DNA of 64,000 bases from Patescibacteria group bacterium (GCA_049296775.1 JBAQTB010000001.1:288992-352991); one strand, 5' to 3'. Positions 37,580-64,000 are shown, numbered from the stretch's first letter. The notes: generated by a model not told the origin, from the letters alone. A program made the numbers and translations.

Positions 37580-39071
<1,492 letters not shown>

Positions 39072-39191
39072 TCAAAGGAATTTTCCTTTATCGGTCGAGA
39101 TCATAGAGTCGTACGTAAGTATGACTTTACGATACACGGGACGTTGTAATCACAGAGTTAGTCATTAGAGCATCGCTTGATTGGTATCAAA

Positions 39192-48718: not shown

Positions 48719-48752
48719 ATTAAAAAACAGAGCAAATTGCTCTGTTTTTTAA
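48719..48752. terminator. Bidirectional terminator
   Basis: aaaaaacagagcaa att gctctgtttttt. Confidence 0.6.
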
Positions 48753-48753
48753 G

Positions 48754-50715
48754 TTATATCGGCTCGTCTGAGATGCCTTGGACTTCACCGGAGGACGTAT
48801 CTCCACCCGGACTCCCGACCCCCACGAGACATATAGTCGGTAGAGATCTGTAAGTTGAGAAGAATTCTCTGGTTTTGAGGGTGCCGTCAGGCATGATGAT
48901 GTTGTAATCAAAGGTGGTAGTAGCCCCAGGGTGAGCGGCTTGGCATTTGCGGACGCCAGGAGCTAGGGTTGTAGTGGGCTTTTCTACAGTTGCACCGTAG
49001 CCAGTCCAGCTGAGGACCACTGGCGGCGTGTATGAAGCTTGGCGACCATCTGAGGTGCCCCAGAAGGTAAAGACCAGCTCATTGGTGGCTGAGTCTACGT
49101 GGGTAGCGAGCATGACGTAATTGCCGGTGTCATTGGTGATTTTGAGGTCTGGCGAGGGGTCGTAAAGAGTAGCGTCAGTTCCCGGGTTATTGTTGGAGGG
49201 GTCGTTGTAATAGCTAACCACAAGTGAGTGATTGCGACGTTCAGCGATGTCTAGTCCTGAGTTCATGGCGGCTCTGAAGGTTGTGGTACCAATTTGGCAC
49301 AAGCCACCTCCGATTTCCGGGATGATCTGATCGCCCTTGATAACTAATTCTGGGAGATAGCCGTCGGCAACGGTGAAAGGTTTGAGATGCTCGATTAGAG
49401 AGAGCGTTTCACCGGGAGCAACTAGGAGGCCGTTTAGTTTATCGGCGCCGTGGCGAATGTTGGCGCGACGATTGGCTGGGCTGCCGGCAAAGCTAGAAAA
49501 ACCAACGCCTAAGACTTCTTTGATACCTAAGTCATTGGCGCTGCCGGTTGGAATGGCGGGTTCGGTTTTTTCGGCGGCAATGGTGATGGTGGAGTTTGGT
49601 GTACCAAAGACGGCGAGTAAGTCATCTAGCACGGTATCATCTTTGATCACAAAACCATCGCGGCTTTCTGAGAATTCAATTACGCGATCACCTTCAACCA
49701 CGAACTTAGCGTCTTGTGGCGCGATATCGATGTCAGTGTGAATCTCGTTCAGAAAGGCTTCCATGGCAGCCGTATCTAAAGTTAGACTTGGGTTGCCTTC
49801 TGCGTCTTTGGTAGGGAGGAGCCAGATTTCTAGATCCTTGCCAGTAATCGGGTAGGTGAGCGCCTGGCCATACTCTGGAGCAAAGCTGAGCGTATACGGC
49901 GCATTCTCAACCGCGGCAGTGGCGTCTGGAATCAGGGTTTCGGCTTCTGATTTGGTAATGCCGGCTGAGCGTTCAATGAGTCTTAAAGACAAGGTATCCA
50001 AGTGTAAATCTTGGGCGTCAGTGGTGAGTTCAGTTAGTCCAGTTTCAAGATCGATGACGGCACCTTCTACGGCTTCAACTACGCTGACTGACAAGCTGTC
50101 ACCACTGCCGACAAACACAAAGTCAGTCGGTGTGCCAGAGGACTCAGCATTTGGGAAGGCTTCACGTATGGCGGCCTCGAGCTTGGTTTCTGCTAGCACG
50201 TAATGAGCGTCTAAGTGTTTAGGCGCGACGGTGAAATGATAGAGGGGAGAGAAGAAGTTTTGGAGTTGGTGGTCTGATCTGCCAACGGCCAGGGCTTCAT
50301 CGACGCTGGCGTTAACATCCCAATCAATGAGTTGATAAACTAGGTCAGGATCAGTGGCGACGTTGGTTCTGAGGTCGAGATGTTGTGTGGTGTTATAGAG
50401 CTCAACGTCAACGCCGGCATCCACCATGTCATCAAAAGAGTTCTGGAGGAGTTCGGTGGCGGCCAAACGATCCAGCCCACCAACCCGCACGCCGGCGACA
50501 GTAGTACCAGGTAAAATTAAATCTTGGGAGTAAGCGTAAGTGGCGCCAGCAGCACCGACCACTATAAAGCTACCAAAAATTAAAATGATCACGGCAATTT
50601 TAGCCGCTCTGATTTTCCCAGAGCCTGGAACCTTGGGAGAATCTACTTTAAAAACTTGGGGAGTATCTTCAGAGTGTGAGCTTGGGGCGGTGGGGTGAGG
50701 GGTATGTTTGCTCAT
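48754..50715 (-). CDS. VanW-family protein with N-terminal TM anchor
   Basis: GGGLCQIGTTTFRAA is the VanW signature. A Pro/Ser-rich N-terminus is followed by a TM helix, and the extracytoplasmic region is large. Confidence 0.65.
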   Translation of the reverse strand: MSKHTPHPTAPSSHSEDTPQVFKVDSPKVPGSGKIRAAKIAVIILIFGSFIVVGAAGATYAYSQDLILPGTTVAGVRVGGLDRLAATELLQNSFDDMVDAGVDVELYNTTQHLDLRTNVATDPDLVYQLIDWDVNASVDEALAVGRSDHQLQNFFSPLYHFTVAPKHLDAHYVLAETKLEAAIREAFPNAESSGTPTDFVFVGSGDSLSVSVVEAVEGAVIDLETGLTELTTDAQDLHLDTLSLRLIERSAGITKSEAETLIPDATAAVENAPYTLSFAPEYGQALTYPITGKDLEIWLLPTKDAEGNPSLTLDTAAMEAFLNEIHTDIDIAPQDAKFVVEGDRVIEFSESRDGFVIKDDTVLDDLLAVFGTPNSTITIAAEKTEPAIPTGSANDLGIKEVLGVGFSSFAGSPANRRANIRHGADKLNGLLVAPGETLSLIEHLKPFTVADGYLPELVIKGDQIIPEIGGGLCQIGTTTFRAAMNSGLDIAERRNHSLVVSYYNDPSNNNPGTDATLYDPSPDLKITNDTGNYVMLATHVDSATNELVFTFWGTSDGRQASYTPPVVLSWTGYGATVEKPTTTLAPGVRKCQAAHPGATTTFDYNIIMPDGTLKTREFFSTYRSLPTICLVGVGSPGGDTSSGEVQGISDEPI

Positions 50716-51083
50716 ATATCTGGGTCACGGCGCACGTGCAGACGTACGCTGTCACTGGCTTTAGGGATCGAAATAGTTAAAATGCCATTTTTTAAAGCGG
50801 CCTCAGCTTCATCAGCTTTGACACGACACGGTAGGATCACGGAACGAGAAAAGGCCCCCCAGAAACACTCTTCATAATGCACCGTAGCACGCACAGGTAC
50901 GGCGTCAACATGGCGCTCGCCACGAATAGTGACCAGGTCTTCATTGACATGAATATCCAGGTCTTGTTCTTTTACCCCGGCGATAGCTGAACGTATCAAA
51001 ATAGTGTCAGGGGTTTCAACTACGTCGATGGCTAATTGTCCTTCGTCATTTTTCCAGGCGAAGTCTTCAGGTGACGTCTTCAT
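50712..51083 (-). CDS. Small heat-shock protein (Hsp20/alpha-crystallin)
   Basis: The alpha-crystallin domain reads AIDVVETPDTILIRSAIAGVKEQDLDIHVNEDLVTIRGER...NGILTISIPK. Confidence 0.8.
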   Translation of the reverse strand: MKTSPEDFAWKNDEGQLAIDVVETPDTILIRSAIAGVKEQDLDIHVNEDLVTIRGERHVDAVPVRATVHYEECFWGAFSRSVILPCRVKADEAEAALKNGILTISIPKASDSVRLHVRRDPDI

Positions 51084-51164
51084 ATTTGATTGTATTTTAC
51101 GCGAAAAAAATGACTTTGAGAAGTTGGTTGTGAGTTACGGGGAGAAAGTGTAAAATATCCGTGT

Positions 51165-52280
51165 ATGCAGACACAAACTTGTGCTGTCAGGACACAGACT
51201 CCGCTCACGTTGCAGCGTGTAATGTTGGGTGTGATGGCCGTAGTGATCGCGTATTTTAGTTTACAGGTTTCTGGGATTTTGACGTTTTCACCTCAGGTGA
51301 CCACGGCCACAAATTTAGGGGCCGTGTTACTTGTTGGATTGGTGGCGTCATTATCTTCTTGCACGGCCATGGTGACGGGGGTGGTGGCGGCCGTGTCAGC
51401 TACACAAGTAAAAGTGAGTTCACATGTGTATTTTCACGTGGGGAGATTACTTGGGTTTGCGGGTTTGGGGGTAGTGGTTGGTTGGCTAGGGCAGATGGTG
51501 AGTTTATCCGTTACGGCGAATAGTTTGTTAGTGATTGTGATCGCACTCCTCATGTTAACGCTAGGCGTACATTTAATGCGGCTTCTGCCGCCAGGTGTGT
51601 GGTTCTTTGCGCCACCAGCAAAATTAACTCAAGCGATTACGGCTTTAACGACCAGTCATAATCCGTTGATTCCTGGTGTGATTGGCGTTTTGACCTTCTT
51701 TTTGCCGTGTGGTTTTACGCAATCTATGCAGTTGTATGCCTTGTCTACGGGAAGCCCCGTGCAAGCGGCCTTGATCATGACGGTATTTGCGATAGGTACT
51801 TTGCCGTCATTGGCGGGCATTAGTTTACTCGCGAGTAAAGTGACAGGTACCAGTAAAGTGAGGATGAATTATGCAGTGGGGGCCGTGGTAGTGGCGCTTG
51901 GGATTGCGAATTTACATAACGGTTTAACCTTGCTGGGGTGGACTGGCTTCAGAGCTGACTACGCGCCGGTGGTGATGGCGGCTGTGATTTTGCCAGATGG
52001 CAGTCAACGGATTGAAATGGAAATTACACCAGCGGGTTACGCTCCAAAAAATCTGACAGTGGTTGAAGATATTCCAGTCACTTGGGAGATTTATGGGACT
52101 GAGCAGTTGGGGTGTGCCGATACGCTAGTGTCTCAAACTTTTGATTTAGCTGAAAATATTCAGCCAGGGTTTAATCAAATTATGTTCACGCCAACCGAGC
52201 CTGGGGTGTACGCGTTTAGTTGTTCCATGGGCATGGTGCGCGGTACCATGACTGTTTTACCGGGGGAAAATACCTTGTAA
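51165..52280 (+). CDS. Integral membrane protein (DsbD_2/TauE-like TM core) with C-terminal extracytoplasmic beta-sandwich domain
   Basis: Eight hydrophobic helices including FFLPCGFTQSMQLYAL. The soluble C-terminal ~110 aa is cupredoxin-like. Function unknown. Confidence 0.5.
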   Translation: MQTQTCAVRTQTPLTLQRVMLGVMAVVIAYFSLQVSGILTFSPQVTTATNLGAVLLVGLVASLSSCTAMVTGVVAAVSATQVKVSSHVYFHVGRLLGFAGLGVVVGWLGQMVSLSVTANSLLVIVIALLMLTLGVHLMRLLPPGVWFFAPPAKLTQAITALTTSHNPLIPGVIGVLTFFLPCGFTQSMQLYALSTGSPVQAALIMTVFAIGTLPSLAGISLLASKVTGTSKVRMNYAVGAVVVALGIANLHNGLTLLGWTGFRADYAPVVMAAVILPDGSQRIEMEITPAGYAPKNLTVVEDIPVTWEIYGTEQLGCADTLVSQTFDLAENIQPGFNQIMFTPTEPGVYAFSCSMGMVRGTMTVLPGENTL

Positions 52281-52441
52281 AGAGGTGGGATTACTTGATA
52301 TTGCCACATTAAAATGGCTATGTTACGCTTGTTTTGCTAAGCATCCGTGTGACGTGACTTCTCCGCTGAAAATTCTGCATTAACTTTCAGAATTCACCAA
52401 TCGTGAGAGTACACCACAATCGGAGAAGTAATTTTGCCCTT

Positions 52442-52705
52442 ATGGCAGATGACGCACGTGTGTTCGTTGGTGGTATTCCTTATGCCGCTACCGAAGATGA
52501 GTTGAAAGCACATTTTGGTGCTGCAGGTGAAGTAGTTTCTGTCTTCCTTCCGATTGAAAAGGAGACCGGTAGAAAGCGCGGCTTCGGTTTTGTTGAATTC
52601 AACACCGCTGAAGAGCAGGCTAACGCCGTTAAGATGTTTGATCGCACCGATCTTGGTGGCCGCTCCATTAGCGTCAGCCCAGCTCGCGCCCGCGATAACG
52701 CTTAA
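52442..52705 (+). CDS. RRM-type RNA-binding protein
   Basis: RNP-2 VFVGGI and RNP-1 RGFGFVEF. The long 5' leader has a small hairpin. Confidence 0.75.
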   Translation: MADDARVFVGGIPYAATEDELKAHFGAAGEVVSVFLPIEKETGRKRGFGFVEFNTAEEQANAVKMFDRTDLGGRSISVSPARARDNA

Positions 52706-52769
52706 GAGTTACAGAAGAAAGTCTCCGCCCCTAGTGGTGGAGATTTTTGTTTGTTATGATGTACGTAAT

Positions 52770-53828
52770 ATGCAAACTATTTCTCATTCGGTGATCGCGC
52801 GTTGGTTTTTCCTACTTTTAGCCTCGGGAATCATTTACTTATACTGGCAGATCATCTCCCCGTATATTATTGTGCTGATTACAGCGGCAATTGCAGCCGT
52901 GATTTTAGCTCCAATTGAGAGCAGGATCCGTAAAGTGGTAAAAAGCCCTAAATTATCTGCAGTGTTGATGATACTTTTGGTGCTGATTGCGATTGTTGGC
53001 CCACTGATTGCGATTAGCGCCGTCATGGTCAACCAAATTAACGATATCGCTAATCAAACTTTAGGTAATCCTGAATGGCGAGCAGATTTCGATTTTAGAA
53101 ATTTGGAGATTGTCGACAGATTGCCGGAGCCTTTGAAGCAACAAGTGTTAGCCCAGAATCCAGCTGACATTTTTAACTCGGCCTTGAGTTGGATCCAGGT
53201 ACATATTGGGACGATTTTCTCGAGTGGAGCCACAGCTTTATTCAAGACAGGTATCTTCTTCATCTGTTTGTTCTTCTTCTTGCTGGATCGGGAAAGAATT
53301 TACAAGGAGTTATTGGCATTGAGCCCTCTGAAAGATGCAGTAGATAGGAGTATCGCGACGCGCATGATTGAAACGGTGAGGGGAGTGGTTTTTGGGGCTT
53401 TAGTGGTAGCGGTTACTCAAAGCGTGGTGGCTGCTATTGGATTGACGATCTTTGGAGTGCCGGGTGCTCTAATTTGGGCAGCTCTAGTCATTATTACGGC
53501 ACAGATTCCAATGCTTGGCAACGCCTTGATTATGGGCCCGGCAGTAGCTTACTTGTTACTGACAGGGCATGAGGGTGCGGCCCTAGGTTTGGCGATTTGG
53601 GCGGTGGTCGCCGTTGGTTTGATTGATAACCTCTTGAGTCCGTTAATTGTTGGCAAGCGGACCAGGATGCACGCGTTGTTAATTCTGTTGTCGATTTTGG
53701 GTGGTTTGGAATATTTTGGCCCAATCGGCTTTATTCTTGGTCCAACCTTATTAGCGGCGTTGTTGGTAGTCGTGGAATTATATAAAGCGGGGATTATTGA
53801 GCATGGCGCCTCCGCTCAGTCGGCTTGA
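52770..53828 (+). CDS. AI-2E family transporter (PerM/YdiK-like)
   Basis: Eight TM helices and a Gly-rich C-terminal block LGGLEYFGPIGFILGPTLLA typical of the family. The ATG at 52770 is preferred over the overlapping ORF-track start. Confidence 0.7.
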   Translation: MQTISHSVIARWFFLLLASGIIYLYWQIISPYIIVLITAAIAAVILAPIESRIRKVVKSPKLSAVLMILLVLIAIVGPLIAISAVMVNQINDIANQTLGNPEWRADFDFRNLEIVDRLPEPLKQQVLAQNPADIFNSALSWIQVHIGTIFSSGATALFKTGIFFICLFFFLLDRERIYKELLALSPLKDAVDRSIATRMIETVRGVVFGALVVAVTQSVVAAIGLTIFGVPGALIWAALVIITAQIPMLGNALIMGPAVAYLLLTGHEGAALGLAIWAVVAVGLIDNLLSPLIVGKRTRMHALLILLSILGGLEYFGPIGFILGPTLLAALLVVVELYKAGIIEHGASAQSA

Positions 53829-53862
53829 GGCTAGAGTAAGTTAGTGCTAGGCTGATAAATAT

Positions 53863-54264
53863 ATGAATAAACGTGTTGCCATTGTTTTAGGACAATTTCA
53901 TAAAGTGTACGCCGAACGCATGTTGGTCGAGGCTAAAACGGCCTTGCTGGCGGCTGGTCTAGAGGTGATTTCAGAAGTTTGGGTGCCGGGATCTCTGGAA
54001 AAACCCTTAGCTTTGAAACGTTTATTGTTGCGTTCGGATATTGATGGTGCGGTAGTCCTTGGGATTATTGAGCGGGGGGAGACTAAGCATGGTTTAGTGA
54101 TGGGGGAGGTAGTGATGCAGGCGATTGTGGATTTACAGTTGCAGACCATGAAGCCAGTTGGAGTTGGTATCTTGGGCCCAGAAATTTTACCCGATCAAAT
54201 CGAACCCAGACTATTACCCTACGCCAAAGCCGCCGCCGAGGCCCTAGGGGTGATGTTGAAGTAG
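53863..54264 (+). CDS. ribH: 6,7-dimethyl-8-ribityllumazine synthase-family protein (RibH-like)
   Basis: VAIVLGQFHKVYAERMLVEA...WVPGSLEKPLALKRLL...DGAVVLGIIERGETKHGLVMGEV has the flavodoxin-like lumazine-synthase pattern. No other rib genes are nearby. Confidence 0.6.
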   Translation: MNKRVAIVLGQFHKVYAERMLVEAKTALLAAGLEVISEVWVPGSLEKPLALKRLLLRSDIDGAVVLGIIERGETKHGLVMGEVVMQAIVDLQLQTMKPVGVGILGPEILPDQIEPRLLPYAKAAAEALGVMLK

Positions 54265-54399
54265 CCCAAACGAGGGCGTGATCGCAGAGTTTTACCTCAG
54301 ATATAAGCATCCACTTGATGGGTGCTTTTCGTGGTCTTTCCTTTCTCTACATGTATCAAGGAATTTAGCCAATTATAGCTAAATAATAGCATTTTTCTC

Positions 54400-54428
54400 T
54401 TGACAAAATGTCCGAAAAGTAGTATGGT
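54400..54428 (+). promoter_or_regulatory. Strong candidate promoter driving the GC-rich orphan gene through a structured leader of about 165 nt
   Basis: TTGACA, a 17-nt spacer, then TATGGT. The leader has two copies of the (t)tcgtggtt(c)tcgt motif and the RBS AGGAGG. Confidence 0.45.
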
Positions 54429-54593
54429 TGTTTGTCGAACAATCGAAACATGGGAGGTTTTCGTGGTTCTCGTCCGGTAGGTCAAAATAGGCCTTTCGAG
54501 CAAGAACCCATGAGGAGAGAATCTCGTGGTTTCGTAACCGCTGGCATGCGCTAGCGTTCGGAGACATCCGAGCCAACACGATAGGAGGCAAAT

Positions 54594-55043
54594 ATGTCCA
54601 GATTCATCCACGGTAACGACGCGACCAACAACATGAGTATCTTTCGCGGTGGGCGCCAGCTCATCGTCCAGAACGTCTACAAGCGCGCCGGCTCCCAGGA
54701 GTCGGTCGCGTTCCTGACCTACAAGGACGCGGCCGAGAAGCCGCGGTCCTCGTACCATTTCGATCAGTGGTGCGAGGATGAGGTGATCCTCATCCTCGAG
54801 CCCAGCCAGGGACCCTACCTCCCGGCGCAGGTCGGGGACGAGATCCGTCATGTGGACGGGGGTCTCTCGATCGGCTATCGGTGGCGCCACGTCGTCACGG
54901 AGGACGACCTGGACCGCGGCTACGTGGTCGGCGGCGAGTACCAGGGCGTCCGCTCTGGCCGGCTCGAGCATCCGGTTTTCCTCCGGCCGCGGACGTTCTA
55001 CCAGCGTGGGAACGCGGAGAGGGCTTCCCAGTCCGTTTTCTAG
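54594..55043 (+). CDS. Hypothetical protein, strongly GC-rich orphan
   Basis: 149 aa. GGAGGC RBS 7 nt upstream. Third-codon positions are almost all G/C, unlike the flanking genes. A terminator follows. Confidence 0.5.
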   Translation: MSRFIHGNDATNNMSIFRGGRQLIVQNVYKRAGSQESVAFLTYKDAAEKPRSSYHFDQWCEDEVILILEPSQGPYLPAQVGDEIRHVDGGLSIGYRWRHVVTEDDLDRGYVVGGEYQGVRSGRLEHPVFLRPRTFYQRGNAERASQSVF

Positions 55044-55164
55044 CCCGGAGGTTCTAGGCCTCCGCCACCATTCATTCCTACCGAGCCGGCCATCCTAGAC
55101 AGGCCGAGCTCAAACCCTCCCCGTGCACGGATCGCATGGAAACGGAGATCACTGGATCCAACTC

Positions 55165-55206
55165 AAACCCGGGAAGCGCTGCACTTGCGCGACCCGGGTT
55201 TTTTAT
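55165..55206 (+). terminator. Terminator after the GC-rich orphan
   Basis: aaacccggg aagcgctgcacttgcgcga cccgggtttttt. Confidence 0.55.
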
Positions 55207-55699
55207 TTCCGGTTATTTTCTCAAACTCAATTTAATCGTTGGTTGATTGAAGGTTAATTCTTGGATAGTCGTTGCTCTTTAAAACAAAAAAGACCACCTT
55301 TCGGTGATCTTTTTTGTGGTGACCCCACGCTGACTGGCCATGAACTTTTCAAAAAGTTCCAAGGAGTTGACCCCACTTTTACTTATCTGGAATGGCGAGG
55401 TTTCACGCTTTCTACAAAGCGAGCGCAAGCCCAAAGAATTTGCAGTAACCTACTAAAAAAAATCGTATAATTAAAGAAAATATCTCATATTTATCTATGA
55501 AAAATTCGCGCAATGACAATTTAACAGATGTTGTTCAAAATCTTCCTACTGCTGCAAGTACTGGAGGAAACAAACCAGCTGGTACGGTCACTACCAGTGA
55601 CGGAACTCAGGTTACTTTGGGCCGCCGCGGTGGAAATTTCAAGCCCCTTTCCTCTCCTCAGAGAGGAATGAACTTGAAGCTCTAGATCACTGGTCTCTA

Positions 55700-57127
55700 C
55701 TAGGCAAGTAAAAAATAACTGTGCGGGACACTCACTACTAATAAATCATCACAGATTGATAGACGATCTTTATTGATAGTGAGTCCATACTTACACCCCC
55801 TATCATTGGCGGTATTCCTTGCCTGTGCAGTCCCTTTATCGCCACTTCCAACTTCTATGGCGATAGGTTTTGATCTCTGAGGCGTCAATATAAAGTCAGC
55901 CCTATTTTCAGCTGCTTCGTAAGTCAGGATTCCTGTTCCAGGATTGACGAACTCTCTATAGAAGTGCAGAGCCGCAATATCTTCCATAAGGCATCCCTTG
56001 AAGTCCAACGGATCCACCTTTATTGAATAAACCTTAATTAATGCCGCTCTGATATTCGGCGTCATAAAAAGGAACTTCGCGGGTTTTCTCGCCTTTGCAG
56101 TGCTAGATCCTTGTGGTGGTACTTTAATGATGAGCTCAGCTTGTACGAGTGCATCCATCACTCCCGTTACTGTTATTGGATGCATCTTTATATCCTGAGC
56201 AAGTTTAACGATACTGACTACGTCCTTATCTGATAAGTATAGCGCTATTTGTTTGATCTTTTTTAAAGTCTCTGGGTCAAAACGCTTAATCGCCACCAAG
56301 TCGTTATTTATAATTCTATCAATCAGACCATTGATCTGATTGTAAGCCGTCATGGTGTCCGTATATGTGGCGGTAAAGGGTAATGTTCCAATTTCAAAAT
56401 AATGCTCCACCTGAGTCTGATCGACTTGAGACCAGTATTCATCTACTTCATTTTTTAATACCTCAAGACGCGTAAAACATTCCTCTGCAGAGTCTGAATA
56501 GTAAAGAGCTTCCCTAAGTTTATTTTTTAAACCTTTTTTAGGGAAAATACGATTTTTTATTAATTGATACTCGACGAAGCTAAGCGGATATAATTTCTCC
56601 AGCTTACTACGCCTCGCAATATCTGGGTTCGCCTGTAACTCTAACGCCGAAGATCCTGTACAGAAAATAAATATCTTTTTATTTTTATCGAAAACAGCCT
56701 TTAAAATCTTCCCCCAGTTACTATCTGTTTGAGTTTCATCAATTAGAATAAACGTTCTATTTCTCAGACCCTCCAGACTAACGCCTTTTATAGTCTCAAA
56801 GGCCTCAAGAACTTCGTTTAGAGTAAATCCTGCTACTTCAATTTGATCTACGGAGAAATATAGAATATCCTCTTTCTCAACACCATTTCTTATAAGCTCA
56901 AGATAGGTTTGAGCCATAATCGTGCTCTTTCCTACACCTCTCAGGCCGATCATAATCAGCCACCGTATATCAGACTTATTTGTTAAAAAATCCTTTACAT
57001 ACTGCTTACTTTTCACAAACATGTGACGCTCAAAATACTCCCTTCCAGTGGAGTCAGTCGCTAGACCCTTTGCGATAATAGGGCCGTTCTCAAGTCGTTG
57101 TTTAACTAAATTATCTAAACTAGGCAT
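55700..57127 (-). CDS. AAA+ ATPase of the AAA_14/DUF4143 (COG1373) family
   Basis: IGLRGVGKST Walker A and ILIDETQ Walker B, with a C-terminal winged-helix-like region. The gene and its surroundings are visibly AT-richer than the rest of the window. Confidence 0.7.
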   Translation of the reverse strand: MPSLDNLVKQRLENGPIIAKGLATDSTGREYFERHMFVKSKQYVKDFLTNKSDIRWLIMIGLRGVGKSTIMAQTYLELIRNGVEKEDILYFSVDQIEVAGFTLNEVLEAFETIKGVSLEGLRNRTFILIDETQTDSNWGKILKAVFDKNKKIFIFCTGSSALELQANPDIARRSKLEKLYPLSFVEYQLIKNRIFPKKGLKNKLREALYYSDSAEECFTRLEVLKNEVDEYWSQVDQTQVEHYFEIGTLPFTATYTDTMTAYNQINGLIDRIINNDLVAIKRFDPETLKKIKQIALYLSDKDVVSIVKLAQDIKMHPITVTGVMDALVQAELIIKVPPQGSSTAKARKPAKFLFMTPNIRAALIKVYSIKVDPLDFKGCLMEDIAALHFYREFVNPGTGILTYEAAENRADFILTPQRSKPIAIEVGSGDKGTAQARNTANDRGCKYGLTINKDRLSICDDLLVVSVPHSYFLLA

Positions 57128-57238
57128 AAATTTCTCTTATACAGTATAGTATATAAGAGTCATAAATAAAGCAATCCTTAGCTTATATTAGCCAATATTA
57201 CTTCTCACTTGTTTTTAAAATGACCTGTCTTTTAAATT

Positions 57239-57421
57239 ATGAATGGACAGATTGGACGAAATATCACTCCATTGACGCTTGTGCAGTGGGAGAGGACTAG
57301 AGATTCAAAAGCGCGATTTCTAGTTTATTACGGCTCTCATCTCACCTCCATTTCAGGGGCTTGTAGTGCCGTCTCCATTGCCCGCTCCACCTTTTATAAC
57401 TGGATAGGTACAGATGCTTAG
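57239..57421 (+). pseudogene. Fragment of an IS3-family-like transposase (HTH only)
   Basis: ISGACSAVSIARSTFYNWI resembles the HTH of IS3 OrfA (...ACRxFGISRxTFYRW...). The reading frame stops after 60 codons. A further 35-codon piece (MFDKLIAAGDGHSIRYF...) follows in another frame. Confidence 0.4.
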
Positions 57422-57675
57422 TTTAGGGGCACTATTAGTGATTGAGAGGTTGCACAGGTAGATTTCGCGGAAGATATGTTTGACAAGCTTATAGCGGCCG
57501 GAGACGGTCATAGCATTCGCTACTTCTTGGACCGACGTTCAGACCGCTGGAAACAAAAGAAAAGCGGCTTCGCGACATCGTGAAGCCTGTTTGCGGTATT
57601 CGGTAGGTTGACAGAGGGGGTGTGCTAGCCACCCCCTCACCCATTCATTCGTTGTCAGAACAGGGTTGAAATAGT

Positions 57676-57906
57676 ATGAAGAACGGACAACATGTTGTTC
57701 CTTACGGGACTGATTGGGCGGTGCGTCGTGCCGGGTCGGATCGAGTAACTTCGGTTCATTCGACTCAAGCAGCGGCGTATGACGCAGGACGTGACATCGC
57801 GCGCAATCAGGCCACGGAGGTTTTCCTGCATGGACGTGACGGACGCATTCGGGATCGTGAAAGTTTCGGCAACGATCCGCGCAGCTCCCACGATACCAAG
57901 CACTAG
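57676..57906 (+). CDS. DUF2188-family small protein
   Basis: MKNGQHVVPYGTDWAVRRAGSDRVTSVHSTQAAAYDAGRDIARNQATEVFLHGRDGRIRDRESFGNDP matches the DUF2188 consensus (...W.V..eG....s.f.Tq.eA...areiAk...sELvIHg.DGrIr...SyGnDP). GC-rich. Confidence 0.6.
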   Translation: MKNGQHVVPYGTDWAVRRAGSDRVTSVHSTQAAAYDAGRDIARNQATEVFLHGRDGRIRDRESFGNDPRSSHDTKH

Positions 57907-58019
57907 GAGTACTCATCCCCGCCCATTCGTGGTGCGGGGATGTTGTTTGAACGCTCATTTATCTTCCCCTAATTGCTCATCGGGTGTAAGCTAGATCAAA
58001 GTATAAGTTTTAGATCAAT

Positions 58020-58970
58020 ATGAGAAAAGAACTTGGACAAATTGAGCCAGTTCGTTTGCGTGATGTTTGGGCGACTGAACCAGAGTTTACGCGTTGGCTT
58101 GCGCAGAAAGATCATTTAACTGCGTTAGGAGAGGCACTTGGTTTAGATTTGACTCTTCTTGAAACAGAAGCTGGAGTTGGAGATTTTAGTGCAGATATTT
58201 TGGCTGCGACAGCGGAAGGGGGTGCAAGCGAGGAAAAGGTTATTATTGAAAATCAGTTTGGCACAACTGATCACGATCATCTAGGTAAGTTATTAACTTA
58301 TTCATCTGGTCGAGATGCGAGTTATATCGTATGGATTTTTGAGAACATAAGAGAGGAGCATAGACGGGCCATTGATTGGCTTAATGAGAACACAACTGAT
58401 GAAGTTTCTTTTTTTGCTGTACAGCTAGAGCTTTGGCAGATCGGTGTATCACTTCCCGCGCCGAAGTTCAGTGTTGTATGTCGACCTAATGATTTAGCAA
58501 AGACAGCTAAACGCCAAGCGGCAACTCGAGCTGAAATGAGTGAGGGTAAATTGCGGCAGCAGGAGTTTTGGGAGCAGTTTCGCGCCTTTGGTACTGAGCT
58601 TCAATCTGATCTCCGTTTCCGTACGCCACGACCGCAACACTGGTATGATCTTAGTATTGGTAGTAGTGATGCACGTATTTCACTTACCGTGAACACGAGG
58701 GAAGGGTTCATCGGTTGCGCTATTTATATTCCTGACAACAAGGAATTATTCGCCTTTCTTCAACAGGAGAGTGAGTCGATAGAAAGGGAGCTTGGTACAA
58801 GGCTTGAGTGGGTCGATCCGCCTGGTAAAAAAGCAGCGTATGCGATTCAGTATTTTACAGATTTTGATATTTTAGATGTCGCAAAGTATCCTGAGTGCTT
58901 CGACTGGTTGATTGGTCGTGCTACCGCTTTTCACCAAGTATTTGCACATCGAATTAAAAACCATGGGTAG
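58020..58970 (+). CDS. Hypothetical protein with PD-(D/E)xK-like nuclease motif arrangement
   Basis: GDFSADIL...VIIENQFGTTDHDHLGKLLTY: a D...ExQ arrangement reminiscent of PD-(D/E)xK folds. There is a second conserved-looking block IVWIFENIREEHRRAIDWLN. The assignment is weak. Confidence 0.4.
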   Translation: MRKELGQIEPVRLRDVWATEPEFTRWLAQKDHLTALGEALGLDLTLLETEAGVGDFSADILAATAEGGASEEKVIIENQFGTTDHDHLGKLLTYSSGRDASYIVWIFENIREEHRRAIDWLNENTTDEVSFFAVQLELWQIGVSLPAPKFSVVCRPNDLAKTAKRQAATRAEMSEGKLRQQEFWEQFRAFGTELQSDLRFRTPRPQHWYDLSIGSSDARISLTVNTREGFIGCAIYIPDNKELFAFLQQESESIERELGTRLEWVDPPGKKAAYAIQYFTDFDILDVAKYPECFDWLIGRATAFHQVFAHRIKNHG

Positions 58971-59004
58971 CGACTTCGATGCATGAAGTTACTCATCGTC
59001 ATTC

Positions 59005-59040
59005 ATCAAAAAAATCACCTGCCGAAGCAAGTGATTTTTT
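59005..59040. terminator. Bidirectional terminator
   Basis: aaaaaatcac ctgccgaagcaa gtgatttttt. Confidence 0.5.
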
Positions 59041-59114
59041 GGTGACCTCACCGGGAGTCGAACCCGGGTTACAGGCTTGAAAAGCCCGTGTCCTAACCAT
59101 TAGACGATGAGGCC
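59040..59114 (-). tRNA. tRNA-Glu (anticodon TTC)
   Basis: Reverse complement is GGCCTCA T CGTC TAATGGTTAGGACA CGGGC TTTTCAA GCCTG ... CCGGG TTCGACT CCCGG TGAGGTC A CCA. Confidence 0.85.
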
Positions 59115-59215
59115 AAGATGATCTTAGCCGCGAAAGAATACCTAAAAAAGCGTCTGTGGTCAAGCTGCGGTCTGGCGGGTGTTACGGCCAAGCAATTTCA
59201 AGCTTGTAAATTTGT

Positions 59216-59797
59216 TTAAGCTGCAAAACGTGAGTTTAGTTTTTCCCAATTTAAAGTCTGCATGAAGGCGTTGATGTAGTCGGACTTTTGGGCCGGCATA
59301 TAGTCGACCATGAAGGCGTGCTCCCACATGTCCATGGCCAAGATAACGGGCAGTCCGGCGAGGTGGCCAAGTTCATGATCGCTGACCCAGACGTTGTGAA
59401 AAGTGCTGGTTTTAGGGTCGAGGGTTAAAAGCACCCAGCCGATACCGCGCATCATGCCGATAGCTTTGAATTCTTGGGCCCAAGCTTCAAATGAGCCCCA
59501 TTGTTTGCTGAGGGCATCGACCAGTGTGCCGTTTGGTTGTCCGTCACCGCCGAGGGATTCAAAATAAAGTTCGTGTAAACGCATGCCGTTAAATTCAAAC
59601 CCAAAACGGCGCTTGAGCTCAGATAGGGCTAGGGCATTGGCTTCAGAATCGCTCATGAGCTCAGCGATTTTTGCAGTGATAGTGTTCACGTTTTTTACGT
59701 ATCCAGCGTAAAGTTTGAGGTGGACTTCTAGCTGTTTAGCAGATAGTCCTTGGACATTGTCTAGAGCGAAGGTTTGTTCAACGTAGGTCATAAACAT
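59216..59797 (-). CDS. sod: Fe/Mn superoxide dismutase
   Basis: DMWEHAF (Asp and His metal ligands) and the N-terminal EVHLKLYAGYVKNVN helix (His ligand). 193 aa. Confidence 0.85.
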   Translation of the reverse strand: MFMTYVEQTFALDNVQGLSAKQLEVHLKLYAGYVKNVNTITAKIAELMSDSEANALALSELKRRFGFEFNGMRLHELYFESLGGDGQPNGTLVDALSKQWGSFEAWAQEFKAIGMMRGIGWVLLTLDPKTSTFHNVWVSDHELGHLAGLPVILAMDMWEHAFMVDYMPAQKSDYINAFMQTLNWEKLNSRFAA

Positions 59798-59923
59798 CTC
59801 AAATTTAAGCTGGAATCTTCTGGTATTCAGGGTACAGGAATTTGCCCAATCACGCTATATTGCCAGGCATCATTGAGGTAATCACGCATGGACAGACTCA
59901 AGTTTATTCAGTAAAATTGCGTT

Positions 59924-60937
59924 ATGCGTATTTTAGCGATTGAAAGTAGCTGTGATGAAACTGCTGTAGCCATCCTGACTGGGGAGGGAGAGGTTTTGAC
60001 GTTGGAGAAGTCGATTGTGAGATCGCAAATTGAGTTGCATGAGACTTACGGTGGGGTGGTGCCGGAAGTGGCGGCGAGAGAGCATTTGCAGCTCATGGTG
60101 CCAAGTTTGCATCAGGCGCTAGCGTCTGTGCTTGATGGGGAAGTCGATCTGATCGCCGTGACGGCTGGTCCGGGTTTAGCTCCGGCTTTGCGGGTAGGGG
60201 TGGAGACGGCGAAGGCTTTGGCGTGGGCTTGGAATAAACCGTTGGTGGGGGTGTGTCATTTGGAGGGGCACATGTATGCGCCGTGGTTGGGCGAGAGTGT
60301 ACCGATGTTTCCGGCTTTGGCTCTGATTGTGTCAGGCGGACATACGGAATTGGTTTTGATGAAGGCTCATGGTCAGTTTGAGAGGCTGGGGGAGACGCTG
60401 GACGATGCTGCTGGAGAGGCTTTTGATAAGGTGGCAAAAATGTTGGGGCTTGGTTACCCGGGCGGACCAAAAGTTGCTCAGTTGGCGGAGAGCGGTAATG
60501 CTAAAGCTTTTGATTTTCCACGGGCCATGCTGGACAAGGACAATTTAGTGTTCAGCTTTGCGGGGTTGAAGACATCTGTTTTGTATACGCTCCGCAAACA
60601 TGAAGACCAGCTGAATGATCCCAAGTTTAAGGCCGATATTGCCGCGTCTTTTCAGGAAGCGGTGGTGGATGTGCTCGTCAAGAAAACTCTGCGAGCCATT
60701 GGGCAGGTTAAACCGGCTTCAGTAATTTTGGCCGGGGGAGTGGCGGCGAATTTGGCTTTGCGCGCACGACTTGACGAGGCTTGTAGTAGCGTCGACGTCC
60801 CGTTGTTCGTGCCCGAGTTCCAATACGCCATGGACAACGCCGCTATGATCGCCGTGGCCGGTTATTTTAGGGCTTTGCAGGGAGACTTTATCGACCCTGT
60901 GCTCTTGCAGGCTGATCCCAACATGGACATTCTTTAG
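59924..60937 (+). CDS. tsaD: tRNA N6-adenosine threonylcarbamoyltransferase TsaD (Kae1/YgjD)
   Basis: MRILAIESSCDETAVAI, CHLEGHMYA (HxxH metal site), SGGVAAN. Confidence 0.9.
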   Translation: MRILAIESSCDETAVAILTGEGEVLTLEKSIVRSQIELHETYGGVVPEVAAREHLQLMVPSLHQALASVLDGEVDLIAVTAGPGLAPALRVGVETAKALAWAWNKPLVGVCHLEGHMYAPWLGESVPMFPALALIVSGGHTELVLMKAHGQFERLGETLDDAAGEAFDKVAKMLGLGYPGGPKVAQLAESGNAKAFDFPRAMLDKDNLVFSFAGLKTSVLYTLRKHEDQLNDPKFKADIAASFQEAVVDVLVKKTLRAIGQVKPASVILAGGVAANLALRARLDEACSSVDVPLFVPEFQYAMDNAAMIAVAGYFRALQGDFIDPVLLQADPNMDIL

Positions 60938-61034
60938 ATAGCCACGATTGTTTGACCATCCTGAGGCGAATGCCGAAGGACGGGGTCTCGGTGGCCGGCT
61001 GCTAATCCTTCGTTACCTCAGGATGGGTAAAAAT

Positions 61035-61454
61035 ATGACATACACTTCCAAGTCTGCTGAAGATACGCAGAAAATTGCCGCTGACTTTGCCAAGACTCTA
61101 AAAGGTGGTGAGTTTATTAGTTTGATCGGAGATTTGGGAGCAGGGAAGACGACCTTTACGCGAGGCCTGGTTGAGGCCTTGGGCGGCACGGTCCGCGTCA
61201 AATCACCGACCTTCACCATCATGAACGAATATCCGGTTGATTTCGGTAACATTAAACGTGTCGTTCATATCGACTTTTATAGATTTTCTGATACTTCAGA
61301 ACTGGAGGCCCTGTCACTAGAAGACGAACGCCGGCCGGATACTGTCATTTTAGCCGAGTGGCCAGATGCCCTCTTCGGATATGAATTGAAGTCTAATTTG
61401 CTGGTTAGATTATATTTAATTACAATGAATGAGAGGAAGATTGAAATTATTTAA
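61035..61454 (+). CDS. tsaE: t6A biosynthesis ATPase TsaE (YjeE)
   Basis: LIGDLGAGKTTFTRGL P-loop and SPTFTIMNEY...HIDFYR. The ATG at 61035 is preferred over the ORF-track start at 60948. Confidence 0.8.
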   Translation: MTYTSKSAEDTQKIAADFAKTLKGGEFISLIGDLGAGKTTFTRGLVEALGGTVRVKSPTFTIMNEYPVDFGNIKRVVHIDFYRFSDTSELEALSLEDERRPDTVILAEWPDALFGYELKSNLLVRLYLITMNERKIEII

Positions 61455-61457
61455 TTT

Positions 61458-62021
61458 ATGGTTGAAAAAAGGGGCGGCTCACGTGAATTTTATTCTGGTA
61501 GAGAATTGGAAGTGGACGTATTCGGTAAGCCTAAGTTTCCCACCGAGTATGAACAGGCGTATCGGCGCCTAGCAAAGGAACGTGGCGGGTACCTGCCTTA
61601 CGAAAAGGCTCAATCTTTGATACGAGAGTTTACACCTGATGATCCAACTAACCCAAGTAAGGAATTTGCACGTGATTTGCGTTTAGCTATTTGCGAGATC
61701 TTGGAGCTGGAAGGGGAAGAGGCCGATATCGTTAAGATTTACAGTGCGCTTGGAACGGCATTAGATATTTACCATGGGGTGGATGCATGGATTGAGATTG
61801 ATCTAGATGGTTTGCATGCTGAAGCGAGTATGGATGTTACTCATAGAAGTGATAAGTTAGATGATGGACATAAGGCGGATGTAATTTTAGGCGACATCCT
61901 GGAGCCAGAAAACGCAAAGTACCTGGCTGAAGTAGATAAATACGCGGAGACTGTTGCGGATGTGTTGTTGGATGGACTTAGAAACGCTAGTAAAAAGGGA
62001 GTTAGAGCCGTTAGGAGATAA
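61458..62021 (+). CDS. Hypothetical protein
   Basis: 187-aa ORF tightly following tsaE and ended by a strong terminator. No recognisable motif. Confidence 0.45.
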   Translation: MVEKRGGSREFYSGRELEVDVFGKPKFPTEYEQAYRRLAKERGGYLPYEKAQSLIREFTPDDPTNPSKEFARDLRLAICEILELEGEEADIVKIYSALGTALDIYHGVDAWIEIDLDGLHAEASMDVTHRSDKLDDGHKADVILGDILEPENAKYLAEVDKYAETVADVLLDGLRNASKKGVRAVRR

Positions 62022-62026
62022 TATTA

Positions 62027-62066
62027 AAAGACCGCTATAGATTGACAAGGCGGTCTTTTTTTGTTA
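62027..62066 (+). terminator. Terminator
   Basis: aaaagaccgc tatagattgacaag gcggtctttttttg. Confidence 0.55.
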
Positions 62067-62095
62067 CTCTGTCCAGTTCCTAACTGGAGGTAGTT

Positions 62096-62374
62096 GTGGA
62101 AAATCAATGCATCGCTTGTGGGACCGGGCGTGGAGCTCGACCGGTAATCTGTGGTGATTGCGTCGATCCATCAGGGGTCTCTACTTACTGCAGGGGTTGT
62201 GGCTTTAGAATGCCTTTAGAGATCGCTGATGTTGGGTTACTCATGGACCATCTTGAGACTGAAATCGAGGTTCCGATGGGAACGGTACTAGTGTACCTCG
62301 TGCGGTGTCCGTTGTGTAGAGACACACATGATCCGTGCATATACCCGCAAAGACTCTTTTCGGTGATCGCGTGA
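62096..62374 (+). CDS. Small Cys-rich protein with four CxxC pairs (zinc-ribbon-like)
   Basis: CIAC, CGDC, CRGC, CPLC within 92 aa. GGAGG lies upstream. Confidence 0.45.
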   Translation: MENQCIACGTGRGARPVICGDCVDPSGVSTYCRGCGFRMPLEIADVGLLMDHLETEIEVPMGTVLVYLVRCPLCRDTHDPCIYPQRLFSVIA

Positions 62375-62386
62375 AGATCACGTATC

Positions 62387-62413
62387 TGGACCCACAAGTG
62401 GTGGGTCCTTTTT
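62387..62413. terminator. Bidirectional terminator between convergent genes
   Basis: ggacccac aagt ggtgggtcc tttttt. Confidence 0.55.
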
Positions 62414-63117
62414 TATCCAAACCGCAATAAAGTAGTCCCTACAATCGCGGCGGTTTCGGCGCGGAGGATGAGGTTGCCGAGGGTGACAATATGCGCTTGA
62501 GAGTTTTTAGCGAGGGTGATTTCTGGATCGGAAAAGCCGCCTTCTGGGCCAATGAATAAAGCGACCTCGCTAGATTTATGGAGTTTTGGCAGTTTTTCGC
62601 CACCGGATTCATGAAAGAAGAGGCGGATTGATTTTTCTGTGTAGGCCATGGCTTCACCGAGTTTGAGGGGTTCGGTGATGGTTGGCAGGGTCGTCCGACC
62701 GGATTGTTCGGCTGCTTCCCTCACAATATCGTTCCAACGTTTTGGAGTATCTTTTGGTCTTTTGATGACACGATCGGTGAGGAGGGGGATGAACTTAGCT
62801 GCTCCGAGTTCAGTGCATTTTTGCAGAGTCCATTCAAAAGTATCGCGTTTGGTCATGGCAGCACAGACGGTGATGCTGGGAAGAATCGGCTTTGAGATGT
62901 TTGAGCTACCGATCATGCCCATGATGGCAGTTTTGGTAATGTTGGTGATTTGGCCTTCTAGCTCTTCGCCGTCACCAATCATGAGACTGATGGGGTCGCC
63001 AAGTTTCATGCGTAGCACGGTGGAGATCTGTTTGTGTAGACTGCCGGCGGGGATACAAAAAGCTTCCGCTGATTTAGCGATCCATTCGGCGGGAACAAAG
63101 AACCTGGCGGTACGCAT
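62413..63117 (-). CDS. rsmE: 16S rRNA (uracil1498-N3)-methyltransferase RsmE
   Basis: PUA-like N-terminus; LFIGPEGGFS; LGNLILRAETA (SPOUT knot). Confidence 0.85.
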   Translation of the reverse strand: MRTARFFVPAEWIAKSAEAFCIPAGSLHKQISTVLRMKLGDPISLMIGDGEELEGQITNITKTAIMGMIGSSNISKPILPSITVCAAMTKRDTFEWTLQKCTELGAAKFIPLLTDRVIKRPKDTPKRWNDIVREAAEQSGRTTLPTITEPLKLGEAMAYTEKSIRLFFHESGGEKLPKLHKSSEVALFIGPEGGFSDPEITLAKNSQAHIVTLGNLILRAETAAIVGTTLLRFG

Positions 63118-63999
63118 TTAAATTCCGATAATTTTCTTAACTTCTTCCACTGAGGTTAACCCATCTACGGCCTTTAGTAAACCGTCTTGAGCCATGGTGA
63201 TCATGCCTTGAGCTTTAGCGACATCACGCATTTCGTATTCGGAAATACTGCCCTTCAGGATAGCTTGTTCAATAGCCTGGTCCTTGATCAGGATTTCGTA
63301 AATACCCAAACGGCCTTTATAGCCGCTGTCATTGCATTTATCACAGCCTTTTGGGCCCATGAATTGGACTTTGCTTAGATCGACCTTGGCTTCACCGGAG
63401 GCTTCCGAGATGTTGTCTAATTGAGCTTTAACTTCAGCGAGCAATTCTGGTTCCAGTGTAGTTGGTTGTTTACACGCGCATAAACGTCTGATGAGTCTTT
63501 GGCCCATGATGGCGTTGATAGCGGGGGCTAGGAGGTGAGGAGCTACGCCCATGGAGAGGAACCGTGGCACGGCTCCGGCGGCGTCATTGGTGTGAATAGT
63601 GGACAGGAGGAGATGACCGGTTAAAGCGGCTTGAATGGCAATTTCAGCCGTTTCAAGATCACGAATTTCTCCCACCATGACGATATCAGGATCCTGACGC
63701 AGAATCGAACGTAAGCCTTTAGCAAAAGTGTAGTCCTTGCTGTAATCAATCTGGCTTTGATTGAGACCTTTGACTTTATATTCAACCGGATCTTCCAGGG
63801 TAATGATTTTTACGTCTTTGGTGTTGAGTTTGCTCAAAATCGCGTAGAGCGTAGTGGTTTTACCGGAGCCAGTTGGTCCGGTGGTGATGATCATGCCGTT
63901 TGGACGCTCGATCTCTCTTGTTAGGCGCTTCAGGGAGGCCGGTCTAAAACCAAGTTTTTCGAATTCTAACGCAATCGTGTCAGGATTCAGTAAACGCAT
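63118..63999 (-). CDS. Type II secretion / type IV pilus assembly ATPase (GspE/PilB family), C-terminal part only; the N-terminus lies beyond the window edge
   Basis: TGPTGSGKTTTL Walker A; the VGEIRD Asp box; the ATGHLLLSTIHTNDA His box; a C-terminal CDKCNDSGYKGRLGIYE Zn-binding motif. Its stop is 1 nt from the rsmE start. Confidence 0.8.
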   Translation of the reverse strand: MRLLNPDTIALEFEKLGFRPASLKRLTREIERPNGMIITTGPTGSGKTTTLYAILSKLNTKDVKIITLEDPVEYKVKGLNQSQIDYSKDYTFAKGLRSILRQDPDIVMVGEIRDLETAEIAIQAALTGHLLLSTIHTNDAAGAVPRFLSMGVAPHLLAPAINAIMGQRLIRRLCACKQPTTLEPELLAEVKAQLDNISEASGEAKVDLSKVQFMGPKGCDKCNDSGYKGRLGIYEILIKDQAIEQAILKGSISEYEMRDVAKAQGMITMAQDGLLKAVDGLTSVEEVKKIIGI

Positions 64000-64000
64000 G

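Follow-up and report, generated by a model that had tools for sequence, protein, structure and literature searches.

The variable interval on the 3' side of a tRNA-Glu gene in the chromosome of a Patescibacteria metagenome-assembled genome (MAG), spanning positions 54265-59035 (~4.8 kb) of the 64,000-nucleotide stretch that we analysed (the window), is probably a gene-turnover hotspot in which at least four single-gene cassettes of differing composition were acquired separately, rather than as one element. We favour this mosaic reading because the interval contains four GC classes and four terminator-like hairpins, and because homologues of its genes occur in different contexts. It is an ordinary kind of variable region and not a new ATPase-plus-nuclease system. 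The sole gene in the interval with an assignable function encodes a nuclease which, with some confidence, we assign to the PDC-S11 family as a type-IV-like restriction enzyme consisting of one protein.

The compositional evidence is clear in both directions. Across the rest of the window the GC content in 500-bp steps is 0.486 +/- 0.035, with a range of 0.40-0.586, and two segments of the interval lie beyond that range: 54.6-55.1 kb at 0.646 (z +4.6) and 56.4-56.9 kb at 0.36 (z -3.6). Tetranucleotide distance reaches its window maximum over the ATPase gene (z 5.8), and for the nuclease gene it is host-like (z ~0), such that this gene may be an old resident. By gene, GC content is 64% for a gene encoding a 149-aa protein, 39% for the ATPase, 57% for a DUF2188 gene and 44% for the nuclease. 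Fold tests identify the four hairpins, and most cassettes end with one of their own. The patchiness described in the initial annotation was therefore borne out by windowed GC and tetranucleotide analysis, and the ORFs, tRNA-Glu and terminator hairpin that it claimed all proved real on gene, family, tRNA and fold evidence. NCBI lists three of the proteins under a Patescibacteria group MAG. Given that the sequence derives from a MAG and that the GC jumps are abrupt, the patchiness could in principle reflect an assembly chimera. However, over 48020-64000, a range that covers the whole interval and both flanks, the sequence is 100% identical to a 53.9-kb contig from a separate assembly of run SRR28012402, and synteny with relatives holds in both flanks, making a chimera extremely improbable. 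Apart from the tRNA, Rfam searches detected no RNA family in the interval, riboswitches included, and the island proteins had no match in NCBIfam.

The interval is bounded by a ribH-like gene (53863-54264; DMRL_synthase 1.9e-24) and by tRNA-Glu(UUC) (59040-59114, minus strand; ARAGORN, Rfam 63.9 bits), the 3' end of which faces the variable DNA. A hairpin flanked by A and T runs, and thus resembling a bidirectional terminator, is placed between the nuclease gene and this 3' end (59009-59040; inverted repeat I7, fold z -4.6). In the closest long relative, L081, in which ribH is 84% and the RRM protein 93% identical, DNA homology ends exactly at the ribH stop codon (54264) and restarts at SOD, the same flanks surrounding 4.6 kb of unrelated genes. 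The tRNA-Glu of L081 is 100% identical (59035-59114) and is inverted relative to the flanks, and its 3' side too borders foreign DNA, 3.4 kb long and patchy in GC. The content of the interval differs again in L054, L056 and L059, and the orientation of tRNA-Glu varies among relatives. The ribH/AI-2E-to-SOD interval of the nearest metagenomic relatives holds quite different genes, and the island genes are absent from the syntenic interval of every relative examined. Together with the break at the ribH stop codon in L081, this supports the earlier proposal that horizontally acquired, variable DNA lies 3' of tRNA-Glu. The empty site that had also been anticipated, with ribH followed directly by tRNA-Glu, was not found; the nearest case is L054, in which the order is SOD, tRNA-Glu, a small GIY-YIG gene and AI-2E, without ribH and with the 3' side of the tRNA empty. 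A scan of a genome collection with TsaD gave no relative above 51% identity, and the nearest relatives reach at best 75% for SOD and 81% for TsaD, too distant to date the order or the independence of the acquisitions. Exact-sequence queries with the ribH-like protein and SOD returned no record.

The initial annotation had interpreted the interval as a single tRNA-integrated element whose integrase was lost. Were this so, one element would have targeted the 3' end of tRNA-Glu, its genes arriving together, and would later have lost both integrase and att sites. The position of the variable DNA on the 3' side of the tRNA is in keeping with this, as is L081, where the inverted tRNA again has foreign DNA at its 3' side, and L054, where the same side is empty. 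In addition, close homologues of both the ATPase and the nuclease ride elements with tyrosine or serine recombinases. These features are shared with tRNA-gene-associated genomic islands, which similarly comprise deviant foreign DNA 3' of a tRNA that is missing in relatives and carries accessory or defence cargo. Other expected hallmarks are lacking here. No integrase or recombinase remnant was found among the ORFs scanned in 54265-59035, a repeat search of the interval found no terminal repeats, and no IS ends were found within it. There is no duplicated tRNA 3' segment: blastn-short searches with the tRNA-Glu and 40 nt on each side found nothing inside the island beyond matches of 9-11 nt, as expected by chance, and the longest tRNA match anywhere in the window is 13 nt, in tRNA-Gly. 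Unlike such islands, the interval also combines several compositional classes, four in all, and the orientation of its tRNA changes between relatives. Each gene, moreover, has homologues that occur without the others; the nearest homologues of the ATPase, the 149-aa protein and the nuclease are each found in different contexts elsewhere, and the DNA or translated similarity, where compared, extends to the single gene only. Taken together, these data make a common arrival of the genes unlikely, and separate acquisition of cassettes is the reading that we prefer. One element that later decayed and was given secondary insertions is a less probable alternative.

The nuclease is encoded on the plus strand at 58020-58970 and is 316 aa in length. 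It is a putative modification-dependent nuclease of the Madara/MdgA type (PADLOC PDC-S11), matching model PDLC04911 with residues 1-314 on profile positions 1-314 of 318 (2.1e-110, 367 bits) and two further PDC-S11 models also strongly. An N-terminal NucS-like PD-(D/E)xK domain (D59, E77, Q79) is combined with a C-terminal DUF4268 domain (PF14088, 2.9e-26, residues 180-311). D59, E77, N78 and Q79 do not vary among 48 homologues; by position only, the conserved acids would correspond to the mutated residues Madara D63 and MdgA E77. The predicted fold and the invariant D59/E77/Q79 bear out the PD-(D/E)xK-like signature that had been noted in this protein, and the proposal that the interval carries defence-type genes is likewise supported. 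The suggestion of an uncharacterised module has been overtaken, since the family has now been characterised through Madara and MdgA. Madara (PDC-S11, from E. coli ECOR34) restricts T4 with glucosyl-hmC and not plain-cytosine T4, an activity abolished by D63A (bioRxiv 10.64898/2026.09.05.749240). MdgA, a DUF4268 nuclease of metagenomic origin, is far more active in degrading T4 DNA than T4-GT7 DNA in vitro, and E77A abolishes this (PMC12366544). Both restrict modified-cytosine phage in E. coli, each as a single gene (bioRxiv 10.64898/2026.09.05.749240; PMC12366544).

We connect the protein to these two enzymes through the PADLOC model and the domains that they have in common, and through the agreement in residue number at E77. 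By analogy, the DUF4268 domain would recognise hypermodified phage DNA and the NucS-like domain would then cut the DNA so recognised, with unmodified host DNA being spared, so that a methylase partner would be unneeded. The likeness extends to the full-length PDC-S11 match, a NucS-like domain bearing a conserved Asp and Glu, the DUF4268 domain, a single gene without a methylase, and a family whose members occur in restriction or defence loci, on plasmids and on prophage-like contigs. Homologues of the nuclease studied here lie within type III, type IIG and GmrSD restriction loci, on 64 plasmids and on 67 viral contigs. There are differences, however. The host here is a Patescibacteria MAG, and no BREX or restriction-modification locus adjoins the gene in the window, unlike its homologues. 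The third motif residue is Gln (E-N-Q), which is invariant in this branch. The C-domain of Madara is distantly EVE-like according to its authors, whereas our fold search placed YktB/YbjN/secretion-chaperone-like folds nearest. Compared with the NucS/EndoMS mismatch endonucleases (PDB 2vld, 5gke), the nuclease lacks the N-terminal DNA-binding domain and the PCNA-binding tail, and DUF4268 comes after its nuclease domain; it has no sequence-level match to any PDB chain.

The AT-rich part of the interval includes ~500 bp without a supported gene (55206-55699), which surrounds a hairpin flanked by A and T runs that again resembles a bidirectional terminator (55284-55317; inverted repeat I3, fold z -3.7). 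ORFs of 62 and 69 aa in this stretch have no family match and were not called in the independent assembly. The ATPase follows on the minus strand (55700-57127, 475 aa; PADLOC PDC-S01), in agreement with the earlier description of an AT-rich segment carrying a COG1373-type AAA+ ATPase on the opposite strand. It comprises an AAA_14 domain (PF13173, 1.5e-23; PDC-S01, 2e-29), a wHTH and a putative PD-(D/E)xK-like DUF4143 C-domain, the match to which (PF13635, E 1.1e-4, 22.5 bits) is under the Pfam cut-off of 28.1, though DUF4143 is present in nearly all close homologues. The Walker motifs (G60-T68 and D129/E130) are invariant in the subfamily alignment, and D410, E424 and approximately K430 in the C-domain are conserved across the subfamily. 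The protein resembles PDC-S01 in having an AAA_14 domain in which Walker A and B are intact, a wHTH-like middle, conserved acids in a DUF4143-like C-domain and carriage on mobile elements; it departs from the family in the sub-threshold DUF4143 match and in its E-x-K motif, which reads E-V-G with the conserved Lys six residues on. Where named, the closest homologues are nearly all from Patescibacteria, and they sit in integrase- or recombinase-bearing elements. One that is 70% identical lies in a tyrosine-integrase element and shares only the gene and ~80 nt upstream.

Next to the ATPase gene, on the plus strand at 57239-57589, a 60-codon HTH-like ORF is followed by two stops and ~55 more codons. 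This had been called an IS3-like transposase fragment with a frame-shifted continuation. The matches are all weak (Pfam HTH_Tnp_1_2, E 0.06-0.07; PHROG small terminase, 0.004, and transposase, 0.0098), family and repeat searches detected no DDE domain and no inverted repeats, and the continuation is in the same frame behind the two stop codons and contributes no score. It may be a decayed small HTH gene. We also asked whether a 19-nt repeat whose copies, at 55059 and 57632, bracket the AT-rich part might be a target duplication, and rejected this: the copies match at 79% with an exact core of 10 nt, chance alone predicts ~15 such 10-nt matches in 5.6 kb, and the copies lie off the compositional boundaries.

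ATPase-plus-nuclease pairs are common among known defence systems, and the ATPase and the 316-aa nuclease had been suggested to form such a pair; the former would then serve as sensor or motor and the latter as effector of a two-component anti-phage system. Both proteins do match PADLOC candidate models, but each is there a single-gene candidate. Their genes lie on opposite strands and differ in GC content (39% vs 44%), and the 0.9 kb that separates them contains the HTH pseudogene-like ORF, the DUF2188 gene and a terminator-like hairpin. Among 76 loci with a PDC-S11 homologue, none had an AAA_14-type ATPase (tblastn and family profile) or a DUF2188 gene within 5-8 kb. The ATPase already carries a putative nuclease-like C-domain of its own, and Madara and MdgA act as single genes. 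We therefore regard a joint function for these two genes as highly improbable.

Descriptions of defence systems in Patescibacteria are few, and a single phage is known for the group (PMC12366544). The presence of an intact Madara/MdgA-type nuclease gene in such a genome suggests that their phages may carry modified DNA, and the nuclease is a ready candidate for heterologous testing. More broadly, the locus illustrates a reduced genome keeping a small tRNA-side slot in which single-gene cargo is replaced over time. Current understanding is not altered by either point; the practical outcome is that the proposed ATPase-plus-nuclease system is not supported as a unit.

The DUF2188 gene (57676-57906, plus strand, 76 aa) was found to be GC-rich, as had been stated, and its family assignment is secure (PF09954, 1.3e-22, profile 1-62 of 62; PADLOC single-gene candidate PDC-S16, 2e-30; phrog_3220, 5.9e-22). 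A terminator-like hairpin separates it from the nuclease gene (57914-57941, plus strand; -24.5 kcal/mol, z -3.4). The ATPase and this protein each represent single-gene cargo, independent of one another and of a kind often seen on mobile elements and in defence islands, and a defence role is only predicted for either. It is conceivable, though in our judgement rather doubtful, that neither is immune in function, the two being mobile-element genes with a maintenance, regulatory or selfish role, or else passengers in decay, and the label of defence islet a product of permissive models. By reported frequency, PDC-S01 ranks fourth among PADLOC calls in prokaryotes, most candidates still await validation, and a defence function has yet to be demonstrated for any member of the family; the one representative assayed in E. 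coli failed to protect against T4, T5 or T7. For DUF2188 we found no experimental test of the predicted role in the literature, and the pseudogene-like HTH ORF adjoins both genes. Against this, both reading frames are intact, the Walker motifs and the D410/E424/K430 residues of the ATPase are conserved across the subfamily, and the PDC-S01 and PDC-S16 families were originally chosen for being embedded in defence loci.

The most GC-rich cassette contains the gene for the 149-aa protein (54594-55043, plus strand; GC3 87%), which was also called in the independent assembly. Although the initial annotation was right to identify a GC-rich gene here, it is not an orphan and belongs to a very rare family, with ~13 clusters of small-protein homologues among 1.8 billion representatives, which share the motifs HGND, LPAxVGD, EDLxRGY and PVFLRPR. 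The gene is conserved (dN/dS 0.38), and its product is confidently predicted to adopt a fold for which no solved structure gave a match. In the window the gene lies beside defence candidates. Homologues elsewhere form GC-rich patches beside lower-GC DNA, in one locus (L133) adjoining toxin-antitoxin genes, and no relative was found in viral contigs. We regard it as a rare mobile gene. Going further, it might represent a new fold and a new small mobile cargo (e.g. a defence, anti-defence or toxin component) that enters lower-GC genomes as a self-contained high-GC cassette, a proposal that we would regard as speculative and on balance improbable. Two matches to giant proteins were spurious or repeat-driven on re-scoring with the family profile. 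A reverse-strand ORF of 224 aa over the GC-rich patch was likewise rejected, its GC3 being 57-67% vs 87% in the plus frame, which is the frame that gene callers picked. The cassette is closed by a terminator-like hairpin and U-run (55165-55205, plus strand; inverted repeat I6, -25.2 kcal/mol, z -4.3). Its upstream region and leader (54265-54593, plus strand) begin immediately after the point at which L081 homology ends. The consensus promoter reported there is present as TTGACA-17-TATGGT (54400-54428, plus strand), a 10/12 match in the promoter scan, but the region is not enriched, with 7 promoter-like sites against 6.7 expected from shuffled sequence. The promoter block is partly common to another locus (L134), the leader folds with z -3.9, and the region includes a 33-codon upstream ORF (54450-54551, plus strand) and an 18-nt direct repeat (D3, at 54318 and 54450).

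The DNA between the ribH-like gene and tRNA-Glu (54265-59035) is best read as a small set of single-gene cargoes that accumulated independently of one another. Scans for ORFs and tRNAs, together with the profile of base composition, bear out its layout as drawn in the initial annotation. The ribH-like gene (53863-54264; Pfam DMRL_synthase, 1.9e-24) is followed by a GC-rich ORF of 149 codons (54594-55043, + strand), a 475-aa AAA_14 ATPase (55700-57127, - strand; Pfam 1.5e-23) with a weak C-terminal DUF4143 match under Pfam's cut-off (1.1e-4), a 60-codon ORF (57239-57421, +), a DUF2188 gene (57676-57906, +; Pfam 1.3e-22) and the gene for a 316-aa protein (58020-58970, +) with Pfam DUF4268 in its C-terminal half (2.9e-26). 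tRNA-Glu(UUC) lies on the - strand (59040-59114; ARAGORN, Rfam), and beyond it stand Fe/Mn superoxide dismutase (SOD) and then TsaD (both Pfam). An assembly chimera is unlikely, because run SRR28012402, assembled separately, yields 100% identical sequence throughout 48020-64000. The ribH-like product is short (133 aa) and scores 79 bits, below the NCBIfam equivalog cut-off of 84.6. About 500 bp of AT-rich DNA (55206-55699) is without a supported gene, homologues being sought and not found for its 62- and 69-aa ORFs. Elsewhere in the window, a 16S rRNA gene stands alone (37577-39072), with no 23S after it, followed by tRNA-Phe and tRNA-Ile on the opposite strand.

The initial annotation was largely correct in observation and half right in interpretation. 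The patchy composition that it described exceeds chance: against a background of 0.486 +/- 0.035 in 500-bp windows (range 0.40-0.586), GC reaches 0.646 (z +4.6) and falls to 0.36 (z -3.6), with 64% in the 149-codon ORF, 57% in DUF2188, 44% in the nuclease and 39% in the ATPase. Tetranucleotide distance peaks for the whole window in the ATPase gene (z 5.8), and the nuclease gene does not deviate. Foreign, defence-flavoured DNA does lie beside a tRNA gene. The further proposal of a single degraded element integrated at that tRNA is not supported, since no integrase or recombinase family matched any scanned island ORF, no tRNA-Glu repeat rose above chance length, and no inverted or direct terminal repeats of the island were found. 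The interval also has four strong hairpins with flanking U or A runs (z -3.4 to -4.6), placed 3' of the GC-rich gene (55165-55201), 3' of the DUF2188 gene (57914-57941), between the nuclease gene and tRNA-Glu (59009-59040) and, as a perfect-looking bidirectional terminator hairpin, inside the AT-rich spacer (55284-55317). The nearest relatives of each island gene sit in unrelated contexts elsewhere. One ATPase homologue, 70% identical, lies inside an element that encodes a tyrosine integrase plus an HTH_17 excisionase, and another adjoins serine recombinases and a Rep_O-like gene, the similarity of ATPase homologues to the window being limited to the gene and about 80 nt upstream. Nor does anything identify the supposed IS3-like transposase relic as IS3: the HTH similarity of the 60-codon ORF is weak (Pfam E 0.06-0.07; PHROG small terminase 0.004, transposase 0.0098), and its continuation, thought to be frame-shifted, is in the same frame past two stop codons and brings no gain in score. 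Together they may be the decayed remains of a small HTH gene.

The species-representative genome collection held no close relative (best TsaD match 51%), and a SOD scan of metagenomes recovered environmental contigs, from groundwater among other sources, with identities of 60-75%. In the closest, L081 (ribH 84%, RRM protein 93% identical), DNA homology to the window breaks off precisely with the stop codon of ribH (54264) and returns at SOD; its order is AI-2E, ribH, a gene of class-II aaRS-like type, tRNA-Glu, unrelated and partly GC-rich ORFs over some 3.4 kb (one an RpoA-CTD-only protein), SOD and TsaD. tRNA-Glu (59035-59114) is 100% identical there (13970-14049) and inverted relative to the flanks. 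Contig L054 reads SOD, tRNA-Glu, a 91-aa GIY-YIG gene and AI-2E, with ribH missing, and in L056 and L059 a ribE-ribH cluster adjoins SOD in the opposite orientation, tRNA-Glu lying further on. The window's island proteins are absent from all four loci. Foreign DNA lies 3' of tRNA-Glu in the window and L081, and nothing on that side in L054. The interval is a recurrent landing place, also subject to inversion, because relatives differ in both content and tRNA-Glu orientation. No clean empty site was found in a close relative. Orientation relative to SOD is opposite among relatives (also L054 8823-8897, L056 13249-13323), which implies repeated inversion of the segment bearing tRNA-Glu. The L081 hotspot encodes two proteins (12790-13296 and 14271-15134), one of 168 aa in which the C-terminal domain of RNA polymerase alpha (2.3e-21) makes up nearly everything and one of 287 aa that is class-II aminoacyl-tRNA-synthetase-like (AsnA-like); in L059 an ORF of 924 aa that matches no Pfam family (15674-18448) directly adjoins tRNA-Glu. 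The ribH-like gene is isolated beside the AI-2E permease gene in the window and L081, and in L056 (10625-12120) and L059 (10603-12070) ribH follows putative riboflavin-synthase-like (ribE) and small riboflavin-kinase-like ORFs.

The sole interpretable gene of the interval is the 316-aa nuclease. It matches the PADLOC PDC-S11 model, a single-gene defence candidate, end to end (2.1e-110), and its "D...ExQ" signature is real, since D59, E77, N78 and Q79 are invariant among 48 homologues. An AF2 model built from these (pLDDT 87) suggests a C-terminal domain like the YktB, YbjN and secretion-chaperone folds. Madara, the PDC-S11 protein of E. coli ECOR34, restricts T4 containing glucosyl-hydroxymethylcytosine and spares cytosine-T4; it has a NucS-like PD-(D/E)XK N-domain and is inactivated by D63A (bioRxiv 10.64898/2026.09.05.749240). 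MdgA, a DUF4268 nuclease from functional metagenomics, degrades T4 DNA and hardly T4-GT7 DNA, and is inactivated by E77A (PMC12366544). DUF4268 had already been linked to GmrSD type IV enzymes, as their partner. The catalytic residues of the 316-aa protein are probably equivalent to those mutated in Madara and MdgA, and judged by its sequence it is a new, phylogenetically distant, putative member of an already validated modification-dependent nuclease family. Its homologues adjoin type III and MmeI-like type IIG restriction-modification systems, GmrSD-HNH loci, RhuM/Fic genes, UvrD-like helicases and AAA_15/21 ATPases, and occur on 64 plasmids and 67 viral contigs.

The suggested uncharacterised ATPase-nuclease module is wrong in that the literature has since characterised the nuclease family, and the pairing itself is unsupported because neither an AAA_14-type ATPase nor DUF2188 lay within 5-8 kb of PDC-S11 homologues at any of 76 loci, searched by tblastn and a profile from the ATPase subfamily. 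The ATPase matches PDC-S01 (2e-29), a very common, unvalidated candidate in which, by its published description, a PD-(D/E)xK domain is fused to an ATPase; one representative gave no protection in E. coli. Walker A and B, D410, E424 and G426 are invariant in the subfamily and K430 nearly so; the closest homologues, where the source names an organism, are nearly all from Patescibacteria lineages. The DUF2188 protein matches PDC-S16 (2e-30), and in the literature found its defence role is a prediction, with no experimental report.

The GC-rich gene is the most unusual item of the interval. Its GC3 (87% in the + frame) and its dN/dS relative to the unrelated contig L134 (0.38) mark it as a real coding sequence. 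Zero matches came from Pfam, PADLOC and PDB sequence searches. It is no orphan: there are three homologues among 5.8 billion clusters and 15 matches when HMMER was run in full over 1.84 billion representatives (two, to giant proteins, spurious), the family having HGND, LPAxVGD, EDLxRGY and PVFLRPR in common. The homologues are themselves GC-rich patches next to lower-GC DNA, and one has HicA and a pair of nucleotidyltransferase/HEPN type as neighbours. L134 has part of the promoter block TTGACAAAA ... TTGTTTGT in common with the window and does not share the remaining leader. An 18-nt direct repeat, ATGGGnGnTTTTCGTGGT, has copies at 54318 and 54450 and a looser third near 54510, and the 54450 copy opens a 33-codon upstream ORF (MGGFRGSRPV...). 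For the 166-nt leader the fold is more stable than in any of 200 shuffles (z -3.9).
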